Shown here: in pieces, positions 8,787 to 62,321 of the stretch
Layout of the letters: each line of letters begins with the position of its first letter
Position numbering within the stretch: the first letter of the stretch is position 1
Assembly (NCBI RefSeq): GCF_044324875.1
Contig: NZ_CP172185.1
From: Escherichia coli
GTDB lineage: Bacteria; Pseudomonadota; Gammaproteobacteria; Enterobacterales; Enterobacteriaceae
DNA: 64,000 nucleotides
Strand: one strand, 5' to 3'
Program-made: the position numbers and the translations under genes
The notes under the pieces: generated by a model
What the model saw: the letters and a program-made list of their open reading frames with translations, nothing else
The model's database searches: none
What the model was told of the DNA's origin: nothing

Positions 8787-9425
8787 ATGCCCGGGCGCTT
8801 TGAACTAAAACCAACCCTGGAGAAAGTCTGGCACGCGCCGGACAATTTTCGCTTCATGGACCCGCTGCCGCCGATGCATCGTCGGGGGATCATTATTGCC
8901 GCCATTGTATTGGTGGTCGGATTTCTGCTTCCATCTGATGATACGCCCAACGCGCCAGTGGTGACGCGTGAAGCGCAGTTAGATATTCAGTCGCAATCAC
9001 AACCGCCGACAGAAGAACAGCTGCGGGCGCAGCTAGTTACGCCACAAAATGATCCTGATCAGGTGGCCCCGGTCGCTCCAGAACCTATACAGGAAGGCCA
9101 GCCAGAAGAGCAGCCGCAAACTACCCAAACGCAACCATTCCAGCCAGATAGCGGAATTGATAATCAATGGCGCTCTTACCGTGTCGAACCCGGTAAAACG
9201 ATGGCGCAGCTGTTCCGCGACCACGGACTGCCCGCTACCGATGTCTATGCAATGGCGCAGGTAGAAGGCGCGGGTAAGCCGCTGAGTAATTTGCAAAACG
9301 GGCAGATGGTGAAAATCCGCCAGAACGCCAGCGGCGTGGTGACGGGCTTAACCATTGATACGGGGAATAATCAACAGGTCCTGTTTACCCGCCAGCCGGA
9401 TGGCAGTTTTATTCGTGCGCGGTAG
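8787..9425 (+). CDS. ytfB: Cell-division OapA/LysM-like protein YtfB
   Basis: Track ORF 8751..9425; start at MPGRFELKP gives 212 aa; single TM segment then Pro/Gln-rich linker and C-terminal OapA-like domain. Confidence 0.85.
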
Positions 9426-9525
9426 ATGAAGGGTCAACCAAAAGCCAGCTAAGGATTGTCTCTTTGATGACCTTACGTCTGGCTTCCAGTGCCTGAGGTG
9501 AAACCATACTGATATGTTGACATCC

Positions 9526-9547
9526 TCCACGCCCTGAAGGACGTGGA
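9526..9547. repeat. IS200/IS605 subterminal hairpin, tnpB-proximal (presumed RE)
   Basis: 6-bp stem TCCACG/CGTGGA with loop CCCTGAAGGA, 25 nt beyond the tnpB stop. Confidence 0.7.
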
Positions 9548-9571
9548 TCCCTGCTACGTTCAGGCTGTCGC

Positions 9572-10768
9572 CTAAATCATTTCGGGGGGTTCCTGCTTCA
9601 ACGAGCGGCCTGACTGCACCATCTCTCCACAGGCAAGAACGGCGTGCCCCGCCGCTAAAATGTTACGAGCGCCATTTACATCGGCGTTCGCTGTATATCC
9701 ACATGCCTGGCATCTGAATTTACTTTGTGACAGGCGATTTTCTTTCGCTGTATGACCACAGCACGCGCAACGCTGGCTTGTGTACGCTGGCGGAACAGCA
9801 AGCACCTGACCGCCACGCCAGAGCTGCTTGTACTCAAGCTGGCGGCGCATTTCATACCAGCCCTGATCCAGTATCGAACGGTTTAAACCTGATTTTGCCC
9901 GGACATTGCGCCCCGGCTGGCTGACCGTACCCGCTGCTGACTTTGACATGTTGCTGACCTTCAAATCCTCAATGACTATCATTGCGTGGTTTTTGCTGAC
10001 GGTCGTTGTGACTTTGTGAAGGTAGTCCCTGCGGATATTTGCGATACAGGAATGCAGTCGCTGTATTTTGCGTTTCTGCTTCTGCCAGTTATTGCTGAAT
10101 TTGACCTTGCGGCTTAACTGTCGCTGAAGTCTCGCCAGCTTCTTCTGGTTTTTCTGAAAACTGTTTACAGGCTCAAAGACTGTGCCATCTGACAGCGTGG
10201 CGAGTTTAGCCACGCCAGCATCCAGCCCGACCATTGATGCTGAAGGGTGAACCGGAGTTGATACTTCATTTTCAGTCTGAATACTGATGTACCACTTACC
10301 GCAGGACTGGCTGACAGTGACATTTTTCACAACACCCGTGACCTGACGGCTATTCCGGTAGCGCATCCAGCCAAGTTTCGGCAGAAAAATACGGCTGTTT
10401 TCCTGATCGAGCTTAACGCCCTGCGGGTAGCGGAATGCATCATTCTGTCCCCGCTTTTTGAATCGGGGAAAAGCAGCCCGCTTCTGGAAGAAGTTTTTGT
10501 AAGCCCGCTCAAGGTCTTTCAGTGACTGTTGCAATGGCTGTGAGGGCGAATCTTTAAGCCATTGCGTTTCAGTGGCGTTTTTCCACTCAACCAGCCAGGA
10601 AGCCATTTTCCCGTAAGGGATGTATTTATTACCGGCCTCATGATTCTCATTCTGACGTGCCAGAGCACGATTGAAAACGAAACGACATGCGCCTGCGAAG
10701 CGCCTCATTTCACGCTCCTGTTGACCACCGGGTCTTAACTGGAATTTAAATGCCTGTAGTCGTTTCAC
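9572..10768 (-). CDS. tnpB: IS200/IS605-family TnpB (OrfB), RuvC-like RNA-guided nuclease family
   Basis: 398 aa; N-terminal [13 protein letters not shown]..., RuvC-I-like IEDLKV, C-terminal zinc finger CACCGH...CQACG and RuvC-III-like DVNGARNI; full length with no internal stops. Confidence 0.9.
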
Positions 10769-10775
10769 AGGCCAA

Positions 10776-11390
10776 ATGATACTTTGGTCTGTGAGAAAAG
10801 AAACCGATATCCGGCGTGGAAGGCATTGTGTTTTCCTGATGCATGTTCACCAGGTCTTTGTCACCAAATACCGACGTCAGATTTTTGACCATGACGCGAC
10901 AGAAAAACTACGCACTTACTTTTCAAATGTATGTGCTGATTTTGAAGCTGAACTGGTTGAAATGGATGGCGAACCAGATCACGTCCATTTGTTAATTAAC
11001 TATCCTCCCAAACTGGCGATATCCAGTCTGGTAAACAGCCTCAAAGGCGTATCGGGTAGGTTACTGCGACGAGATCGACCAGATATTGCAGTCAGGTATT
11101 ACTACAAAGGCGTTTTGTGGAGTCCTGGCTATTTTGCCAGTAGCTGCGGAGGTGCGCCAATATCCGTCATCCGCCAATACATTGAACAACAGCAAACACC
11201 TGATCAGGTGGAAAACCGCGCCTTATATCCCCGCCCTGAAGGACGGGGTTTTACGGCGCACCGGATAAACCAGGCCAAGCGTATGCTGGTTGATCAAATA
11301 ATATCCCCCAAGCGCAGCAATATTAATATTCACCTGCAATGGGTCGATATCTGGCTTAAAAATATTGTGTTTCCTCCCTTCATCCAATAA
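10776..11390 (+). CDS. tnpA: IS200/IS605-family HuH transposase TnpA; ORF reads through the subterminal hairpin, so the functional C-terminus is uncertain
   Basis: HuH motif ([11 protein letters not shown]) and catalytic Tyr region ([22 protein letters not shown]); about 55 extra codons follow and cross the 11229..11248 hairpin. Confidence 0.75.
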
Positions 11391-11483
11391 GGATTCCATT
11401 AACTGCAAGTGCGCATGATTAATTTCTAAGAGACACTGTGATTTTGCATAATGCACACCTTTACTTTGGTTTTCACTATGCAC
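11223..11483 (-). pseudogene. ytfA-like regulator fragment whose 3' end is encoded by IS-end sequence
   Basis: 86-aa ORF at the position where K-12 carries ytfA (as I recall); its last codons overlap the IS hairpin, suggesting the IS inserted into or next to the gene's 3' end. Confidence 0.3.
11229..11248. repeat. IS200/IS605 subterminal hairpin, tnpA-proximal (presumed LE)
   Basis: 5-bp stem CCCCG/CGGGG with the same loop CCCTGAAGGA as the hairpin at 9526..9547. Confidence 0.7.
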
Positions 11484-11832
11484 AATTTTTAAAAACCAGG
11501 GATTAGCAATATAATAATCCCAGGTAAAATCGATGATTTTTTCAATGGCTTTTTGTGGCTGGTTAACCTGCTGATTAACAAACGCACCGATACCGACAGC
11601 GTAGAATAATTACATACCGCACAACAAGAATGTATGGTGTAAGGCGTTGTCAGTCATCTCCCTCCCTGGGTGCATCGTTATATCCGTGATGAGCGATTTT
11701 TGATATTAATATCTTTCACCATCCGCTATTTTCACTACTTCAGAAAACAAACTTATTTTTATTAATATCGATTCTTTTTCTTTGAGCATTTAACTACGAT
11801 ATTTATAAAAAAATTAAACAGGCAAAAATACA

Positions 11833-13741: not shown

Positions 13742-14155
<414 letters not shown>

Positions 14156-14463
14156 TTATTCAGCCTCCTGTCTGGGTCAGCCGAATCCCGGGGAGGCAAG
14201 GAACGTGTTAAAGGTCGGCTGAAAAATGACGCGTTATAGTACTGACATACCCCGCTAAACTCAAGGCCAGCCGACAAATAAATCTCATCTTTCACCAAAT
14301 CGTACTAACACGCTGATTTGAAGTTCATCACACTTCATCATGGTGTTTTTTTGAACAACTGCATCAGAAATGGTCACCATCAACTTCTTTATCATTGATT
14401 AAAATTAAATCAGAAGATCATCACAGAGGAGAGCACACAAAGTCAGCCGTTGAGGAGGTATCT

Positions 14464-46507: not shown

Positions 46508-46583
<76 letters not shown>

Positions 46584-46618
46584 TTGGGTGGTCTGTGCTT
46601 TACAGCACTTTCAAATTT

Positions 46619-46694
<76 letters not shown>

Positions 46695-46851
46695 TTAATC
46701 TTCGTCTTTCGAACCGCTACTGCCTTGGCTGCCTTCACTCACCTTAGTCACTTACTTTTGTAAGCTCCCAAGGATTCGTTCAGTTGCCGCCTTGTCGCAA
46801 TTCGAAATACTGCGATTGGGTGGTCTGTGCTTTGCAGCACTTTTCAAATTT

Positions 46852-46927
<76 letters not shown>

Positions 46928-62147: not shown

Positions 62148-62165
62148 ATCAGGCTCCGGAGAATT

Positions 62166-62210
62166 GGGGCCGTCCCCGGTGAAAAGAGGCGTTTGCAGGT
62201 CGTCCTGCAA
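62166..62210 (-). ncRNA. Guanidine-II riboswitch (mini-ykkC) in the sugE 5' leader
   Basis: On the minus-strand transcript: two short GC hairpins with ACGR tetraloops, ttgcagg-ACGA-cctgcaa and gggg-ACGG-cccc, separated by about 10 nt and ending about 20 nt before the sugE ATG. Confidence 0.8.
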
Positions 62211-62321
62211 AGCTGATGGTTGAACGGATATTTTGCCAGGTGGCAGGGGAATTTCAACTATTACCTTTGTGACTATCGCAAAAAAACAAACGGCACGACA
62301 TAACTGTCGTACCGTTATTGC

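Follow-up and report, generated by a model that had tools for sequence, protein, structure and literature searches.

A probable omega-RNA gene at the 3′ end of tnpB in a chromosomal IS609 copy of Escherichia coli

Does the 3′ end of a transposon-borne tnpB gene in the E. coli chromosome also encode a guide RNA, and if so, where does the guide begin and which DNA would it address? The question is raised by a 64-kb segment of an E. coli chromosome (hereafter the window, the source of all coordinates unless K-12 is named). Between ytfB and yjfZ it carries two divergent genes, tnpA on the plus strand from 10776 and tnpB on the minus strand (10768..9572), which belong to a copy of the insertion sequence IS609; the gene order is cycA-fklB-ytfB, element, ytfA-yjfZ-rplI. 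A first-pass annotation had predicted that a TnpB-associated guide RNA (omega RNA) would be read from the minus strand, from roughly 9680 down to 9500. We consider it highly probable (about 88%) that the minus strand from 9706 or 9686 to 9501 is the omega-RNA gene of this IS609 copy. At the level of sequence, this assignment is supported by the position, the fold, the strand bias, the guide boundary, the target motif and the intact TnpB motifs. The element ends, the target motif, the guide sequence, the conserved fold, the strand bias, the TnpB motifs and a matching empty site were established directly in this analysis.

Element ends, target motif and guide

By alignment, the inserted element is IS609, a known element of a well-understood class, because the sequence annotated in K-12 as "insertion sequence:IS609" is also exactly 1748 bp long, begins and ends with the same bases, and agrees with the window copy at 98.1% of positions (33 mismatches, no gaps). 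The insertion interrupts ytfA, a gene of the TetR type (TetR/AcrR), pieces of which remain on the minus strand at 9409..9516 and 11265..~11500. Alignment to the empty site of K-12 placed the flanks at ≤9513 and ≥11264, with 2 nt ambiguous (GT versus ATGT). An AT insertion or deletion at the junction was considered and dropped: once the ends had been set from independent copies, the ambiguity came down to one C/T polymorphism at guide position 3.

The ends were mapped with 11 independent copies from plasmids and from chromosomes filed as plasmids, to which 51 loci on viral contigs were then added. The hosts of the 11 copies were E. coli, E. albertii, Klebsiella, Pantoea, Tatumella, Providencia, Xylella and Salmonella. 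Apart from the Salmonella copy, which is truncated at the right end, all of them shared a common sequence up to ...GGAGGATGTCAA and diverged completely after it; at the left, all 11 followed TTTAT or TTTAC. In the combined set, 19 left flanks and 24 right flanks were distinct. Beyond ...GGAGGATGTCAA (last bases GTCAA) all 24 independent right flanks differ, which sets the right end at 9517, 9 nt past the right-end hairpin. When the two flanks of the window copy were joined, the resulting 160-nt sequence found an unbroken match (160/160) in strain HS-02, a natural empty site. With a few substitutions, the same empty site also occurs within ytfA in 3240 genomes. Of 5426 complete E. coli genomes, 1699 (~31%) carried a 2.7-kb stretch with the insertion, counted at ≥80% coverage.

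The empty site of K-12, that of HS-02 and the 24 copies all place the boundary outside the hairpin and not inside it, and because the boundary lies 9 nt beyond the hairpin, a flanking guide exists. The first-pass annotation had expected such a guide in the ~16 nt beyond the right end, and the DNA there is specific to each copy. On the minus strand from 9516 down, the flank reads CAUAUCAGUAUGGUUU(CACC), running on past 9501. A guide length of 16 nt was assumed by analogy.

At the left end, the 19 independent flanks revealed a transposon-adjacent motif (TAM) that is the target motif of the element. Position −4 was T in 19 flanks, −3 was T in 18, −2 was A in 18, −1 was T in 15 and C in 4, and −5 was T in 14; the motif was scored as TTAT in 15/19 flanks and TTAC in 4/19. 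TTTAT followed by CAUAUCAGUAUGGUUU is the natural empty ytfA site, so that the sequence past the boundary, as had been anticipated, would define the target of this TnpB. Two alleles of the site are common. The allele TTTAT|CAT, found in ~1862 genomes including BL21 and HS-02, matches the guide perfectly over at least the first 14–17 nt, while TTTAT|CAC, found in ~1267 genomes including K-12 and Nissle, has a mismatch at guide position 3 (the K-12 empty allele reads TTTAT+CACATCAG). TAM plus guide has one near match in the window, the right-end junction itself, at which TCAA stands instead of TTAT and two of the four TAM bases differ. Such a replacement is the usual way in which such elements escape self-cutting.

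A conserved fold on the tnpB-sense strand

The tnpB open reading frame ends, as first proposed, at 9572 (TAG at 9574..9572). The structured region extends across tnpB codons ~361–398 and the stop codon and through the right-end hairpin (9547..9526), and together with the guide its extent (9686..9517 plus 9516..9501) fits the minus-strand RNA that had been predicted. As a single sequence, the scaffold had a minimum free energy z-score of −2.9. An alignment of 27 non-identical copies (79–98% nucleotide identity), each represented by its last 190 nt, gave an RNAalifold consensus of six local helices and one long-range helix. In this consensus, 98.4% of the cells were paired, and compensatory double changes occurred in 8 of the 49 pairs. 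The covariation score was 0.168, compared with 0.112±0.005 in shuffled alignments (0/500 reached the real value) and 0.03–0.06 when the pairing partners were slid by 1–3 columns. Read in the antisense direction, only 82.6% of the cells could pair, because 16.6% of the cells are G.U.

The coding part of the region allowed protein-level and RNA-level constraint to be told apart. In the compensatory change from G-C to A-U at columns 57:63, both partners are synonymous third positions (GCG/GCA, Ala; CAC/CAU, His). Among 18 copies, synonymous divergence was 0.33 in codons 1–330, 0.145 in codons 371–390 and 0.087 in codons 381–400; amino-acid divergence in the final tnpB windows was not lowered. Taken together, these comparisons argue for a constraint on the tnpB-sense strand that probably acts on RNA, beyond protein coding and well upstream of the part of the right end that the transposase requires.

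A covariance model derived from this alignment of copies (R1) scored 226 bits at 9517..9706 on the minus strand, its sole match in the window. A match at the locus is expected by construction; what R1 shows is that the window holds no second copy. R1 also found relatives whose TnpB proteins are 57–71% identical (E ~1e-20 to 1e-43). With these distant relatives included, 97.3% of the cells were paired and 22 of the 49 pairs were compensatory, figures that come from an alignment of related sequences (A3) fitted to the model and are biased towards structure.

The helices are listed in Table 1. The presumed hairpin of the first-pass annotation proved to be a nine-pair minus-strand hairpin with compensatory changes at three pairs; its U.G pair would be a C.A mismatch on the opposite strand. 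It would have a dual role, as the recognition hairpin of TnpA and as the last stem of the omega RNA. In the stem-loop across the stop codon, 8 of 9 pairs became compensatory after distant relatives were added, and the outer stem of the RAGATH-18-like hairpin changes from C-G to U-A in those relatives. Two candidate pseudoknots, both ~100% paired and mutually exclusive, would involve the 3′ tail: the hairpin-B loop GGGCA (9649..9645; GRCA, 9648..9645) with UGUC at 9522..9519, or a nested helix ACAUUU:GGAUGU that joins 9663..9658 with 9525..9520. Each shows one-sided changes only. We rejected an equation of the nested helix with the pseudoknot of the ISDra2 omega RNA on the basis of a common "AACAUU", since the published numbering assigns the ISDra2 pseudoknot strand to a GAA located in a stem loop. 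In five relatives (L018, L051, L052, L053 and L055), the upstream scaffold and the terminal GGAGGATGTCAA are common to the family, but the right-end hairpin is a different, longer one and the stem across the stop codon also differs. This suggests that the right end may have been exchanged as a module in that subgroup.

Table 1. Features of the IS609 copy, including the predicted omega RNA and its parts
Feature	Position in window	Strand	Basis and remarks
IS609 copy (IS200/IS605 family, IS605 group), 1748 bp	9517..11264	−	inside ytfA; no target duplication
TAM TTTAT (core TTAT, 11268..11265)	11265..11269	−	directly 5′ of left end; independent flanks
Left-end subterminal hairpin CCCCGUCC-UUCA-GGGCGGGG	11229..11248	−	sequence reading
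Right-end subterminal hairpin UCCACGUCC-UUCA-GGGCGUGGA	9526..9547	−	9 pairs including one U.G; alignment columns 160–181
Predicted omega-RNA scaffold (conserved structured core 9686..9517)	9517..9706	−	RNAalifold consensus, covariance model
Hairpin A, 5 pairs, in coding sequence	9670..9686	−	columns 21–25 with 33–37; 98.5% paired; 1 compensatory pair
Hairpin B, in coding sequence	9639..9655	−	columns 52–57 with 63–68; 100% paired; G-C to A-U in 9 sequences
RAGATH-18-like kink-turn hairpin CCUGUGGAG...GUUGAAGCAGGAA, in coding sequence	9590..9633	−	RF03064, sub-threshold; compensatory A-U/G-C at 83:103
Stem-loop across tnpB stop codon	9550..9585	−	columns 122–157; compensatory 127:151 (9 sequences) and 136:143
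Scaffold 3′ tail GGAUGUCAA, near-invariant in 24 independent copies	9517..9525	−	right end cleaved after TCAA
Predicted guide segment CAUAUCAGUAUGGUUU, from ytfA flank DNA	9501..9516	−	right-end boundary; 16 nt by analogy
tnpA (Y1 HUH transposase), stop codon lost	10776..11390	+	canonical TAG is CAG at 11205..11207
tnpB (InsQ family), 398 aa, GTG start, stop TAG 9574..9572	9572..10768	−	NCBIfam guided_TnpB

The first-pass annotation had proposed a covariance-model search. No Rfam family reached its gathering score at the locus in a scan of the whole window. A permissive search by E-value over 9000..11600, in which only matches at E < 0.1 were counted, returned three sub-threshold matches as its best, all from TnpB-linked families and all on the minus strand over the predicted RNA. 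These were RAGATH-18 (RF03064; 9633..9590, 29.5 bits against a gathering score of 44.9, E 0.007), HgcC (RF00062; 9627..9504, 25.2 bits against 50, E 0.004) and sot0042 (RF02656; 9687..9526, 18.1 bits against 88, E 0.08). At the left end, the hairpin region (11228..11332, minus strand) also matched the 3′ hairpin of sot0042 weakly.

The TnpB protein that would use this RNA is well preserved. It scored 388.7 bits against NCBIfam guided_TnpB (cutoff 100) and is homologous to the ISDra2 TnpB in structures 8EXA and 8H1J (E = 3.7e-55). Its motifs are GLDAG at 181, IEDLK at 266, CxxC at 334 and 353, and a further motif at 361; in an alignment to a solved TnpB-family nuclease, GLDAG, IEDL and ADVNGARNI fall opposite the catalytic motifs. 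As judged from these alignments, the RuvC D-E-D triad and the four zinc-finger cysteines are intact. Four residues are unique to the window TnpB, none of them in a catalytic or zinc motif. The protein stops four codons early (Q399*) where other copies encode 402 aa; the cause is a C>T change at 9574 on the minus strand (column 133 of alignment A1), which turns a C-G pair of the scaffold into U.G. The IS609 copy of K-12 (L069, NC_000913.3 1503161..1504908) carries a change of its own: Cys336 of InsQ, in the first zinc-finger CxxC, is replaced by Tyr. This replacement was absent from every other copy compared, the window copy retaining all four cysteines, and it may inactivate the K-12 InsQ.

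The transposase gene is less intact. Although tnpA belongs to NCBIfam transpos_IS200 (144 bits), its reading frame runs on through the left end into ytfA and encodes 204 aa instead of 138–143; the stop loss was seen by comparison with eight intact copies, and RefSeq labels the gene a pseudogene. The same stop-loss variant occurs in copies at two other loci (L012 and L013). As called, the start codons of tnpA and tnpB are only 7 bases apart (10769..10775), and each promoter would therefore have to sit inside the other gene; no promoter-like site was detected there.

A few other RNA features of the window were recorded. A long hairpin followed by UUUU (9436..9482, minus strand), with a fold z-score of −1.3, is located where the 3′ ends of ytfA and ytfB converge, ~35 nt downstream from the guide; it could be a terminator shared by the two genes, though that z-score is weak. 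Elsewhere, the Rfam scan found at gathering level an RpsF leader (14135..14219, minus strand), a guanidine-II riboswitch (62165..62211, minus strand) and three tRNA genes with identical scores (46511..46927, minus strand).

Proposed mechanism and competing explanations

Herein, we describe how the omega RNA of the window copy would work. Its transcription, processing, binding and cleavage are inferred from the mechanism of the family. The RNA would have the same sense as tnpB and would most likely be processed from the tnpB transcript. The scaffold would run from the last ~38 tnpB codons across the stop codon and the right end to the boundary at 9517 (...GGAUGUCAA), whereupon the next ~16 nt (9516..9501), contributed by the ytfA flank, would form the guide. 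InsQ (398 aa) would bind this RNA and cut DNA in which TTAT (TTTAT) is followed by a match to the guide, that is, TTTAT+CATATCAGTATGGTTT. This is the uninterrupted ytfA site, which would be recreated whenever the element is excised and is present in many other E. coli. A cut there would force repair from the copy that bears the element, and the element would be retained or spread. The resident locus would be spared: the element should not target itself, because motif and guide match are separated by 1748 bp and TCAA takes the place of the motif.

In the established model, excision by TnpA leaves a donor joint that is cut by TnpB with its omega RNA, and repair then restores the element (Meers et al., PMC10055086); TnpB there uses the same AT-rich motif as the transposase. 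TnpB itself can carve the RNA from the tnpB mRNA (Nety et al., PMC10278001). In K-12, RNA-seq detected sense transcripts at the tnpB 3′ end of the sister copy (PMC4615843).

Several observations weigh against this reading of the locus. Besides the missing gathering-level match to Rfam, a promoter scan gave no minus-strand promoter-like site above chance near the scaffold. An internal promoter is not needed if the RNA is processed from tnpB mRNA, so its absence is compatible with processing but is not evidence for it. Many of the compensatory cells go back to a small number of splits between clades, and the larger alignment had been made by fitting to the model. A published study assayed an IS609-type TnpB with its scaffold, and its text gives no activity level for the IS609 TnpB (PMC12781874). 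Finally, the window copy looks old and partly decayed (tnpA without its stop and called a pseudogene; tnpB with a GTG start and four C-terminal residues short), so that the excision needed to create the target may seldom or never occur.

This last point leads to an explanation that is unlikely in our view: the omega-RNA gene is real by descent and idle in the window copy. On this view the insertion is fixed, and with tnpA defective and tnpB slightly shortened, no donor joint would form and the complex of RNA and protein would lack a regular target, leaving a well-preserved relic. The tnpA stop loss and pseudogene label, the Q399* and GTG start of tnpB, and a distribution over 1699 of 5426 complete genomes, which suggests old vertical inheritance, would all be expected of such a relic. 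However, the few residues that distinguish its TnpB spare the catalytic and zinc motifs, and the scaffold changes specific to the window preserve pairing, down to the C>T that created the early stop and left a U.G pair. Moreover, the occurrence of the stop-loss variant of tnpA at two other loci implies that this lineage did move, and a matching empty allele, present in ~1862 genomes, could arrive by recombination.

Two further explanations dispense with the guide. Y1 transposases, as in IS608 and ISDra2, need a right-end hairpin and a TCAA cleavage site on the same strand. If these DNA-level needs and protein coding accounted for all of the conservation, there would be no functional RNA, and the missing gathering-level match to Rfam would come as no surprise. 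We regard this as almost certainly wrong: for ~120 nt upstream of that hairpin, in coding sequence that TnpA is not known to need, helices are conserved and covary; at columns 57:63 both covarying partners are synonymous third positions; synonymous divergence falls 2–4 fold and only at the 3′ end; and the G.U pairs make the fold strand-specific. In addition, a homologous scaffold was synthesised as a TnpB guide RNA (PMC12781874). It is very improbable, too, that the transcript is mainly a regulatory sense-overlapping RNA (sotRNA) that tunes the expression of tnpB or tnpA or host physiology and does not serve as a guide. Halobacterium sotRNAs are regulated distinctly from their genes and affect growth when overexpressed (PMC4615843), and the locus does match sot0042 weakly; but the sot/HgcC class is now explained by omega-RNA function, and the invariant boundary, the copy-specific 3′ segment and the TAM are needed by a guide and unnecessary for a regulator. 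The two roles are not mutually exclusive.

An omega-RNA gene at this locus, our preferred reading, would have consequences for annotation and experiment. The RNA is unmarked in RefSeq and Rfam, yet it is present at this locus in ~31% of complete E. coli genomes and somewhere in nearly all of them. Since the guide matches a natural allele (~1862 genomes), the model of homing or retention is directly testable in E. coli with native components. We also entertained a broader and rather improbable interpretation, in which the element acts on the chromosome as a drive or exclusion system, its allele-specific nuclease being directed against uninterrupted ytfA alleles that enter the cell, or in which the RAGATH-18, HgcC, sot and omega RNAs form one structural superfamily. 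If the drive were real, it would explain why roughly one E. coli in three retains an old copy whose tnpA is defective while its TnpB and omega RNA are intact, and the TTTAT|CAC allele of K-12 and Nissle would be an escape variant. The superfamily is proposed because a RAGATH-18-type hairpin is embedded in an IS605-type coding sequence.

Comparison with known TnpB-associated RNAs

The HgcC and sot RNAs overlap the 3′ ends of tnpB genes (PMC4615843). Their models resemble the predicted RNA in position, strand, a terminal hairpin with a UUCA or UUUA loop, and a GAGGAnGUCA tail, and the right-end hairpin of the window corresponds to the 3′ hairpin of HgcC and sot0042. They differ in being archaeal families with other upstream helices, and the scores of the window sequence lie far below gathering. 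RAGATH-18 is the core of the guide RNAs of IS607 TnpBs (PMC11061315), and co-occurs only with IS607 TnpBs according to that study. The window hairpin at 9590..9633 (minus strand) reads CCUGUGGAG...CGUUGAAGCAGGAA against the consensus cCUguGGAGuG...CaCGaUGAAgcAGgAA, and like RAGATH-18 it would belong to the core of a TnpB guide-RNA scaffold. Its inner stem is shorter (17 nt against about 44 nt), and its score is below gathering. While the RAGATH-18 of IS607 is intergenic and partnered by a serine recombinase, the window hairpin sits inside the coding 3′ end of an IS605-type tnpB whose partner is a Y1 transposase.

The omega RNA of ISDra2 from Deinococcus radiodurans likewise lies on the sense strand, where it covers both the 3′ end of tnpB and the right end. 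The two RNAs are alike in their 3′ module, in which GGAAUC is followed by a UUYA-loop hairpin, by GAGG..UCAA and then by a guide of 16 nt, a length assumed for IS609 by analogy. A kink-turn-like UGGAG...GAAG hairpin is likewise common to IS609 and the ISDra2 scaffold printed in PMC12781874. In both elements the TAM is the transposon target site, but it is TTGAT in ISDra2 and TTAT in IS609. IS609 has an extra stem-loop over the stop codon. In the ISDra2 structure solved by cryo-electron microscopy, nucleotides −5 to −3 form a pseudoknot with a stem loop (PMC10097598); the partner strand in IS609 is a candidate only.

The closest comparison is with IS609 itself. The K-12 copy (insQ/b1432) agrees with the window copy in size, ends, divergent tnpA and tnpB, and 98.1% of its sequence. 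It differs in its insertion at ydcL/ydcO instead of ytfA, so its guide is different, and in Tyr336 of InsQ against Cys336 in the window, where Q399* is the change of the window copy. An omega-RNA scaffold of IS609 has been published with its 3′ end at the same GUCAA (PMC12781874, Table S3), and TTAT was used as the TAM for the IS609 TnpB (Table S2). The published scaffold is identical to a Pantoea relative (L004), is collinear with ~9722..9517 of the window, and through that relative is ~81% identical to the last 230 nt of the window copy, with the same terminal GGAGGAUGUCAA. The feature at this locus is, then, of a kind already known: a classic IS200/IS605 omega RNA whose element is already catalogued and for which a homologous scaffold has been published. 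This analysis contributes the precise placement of scaffold, guide and TAM, together with the natural alleles that the guide would target and support from covariation for the fold.

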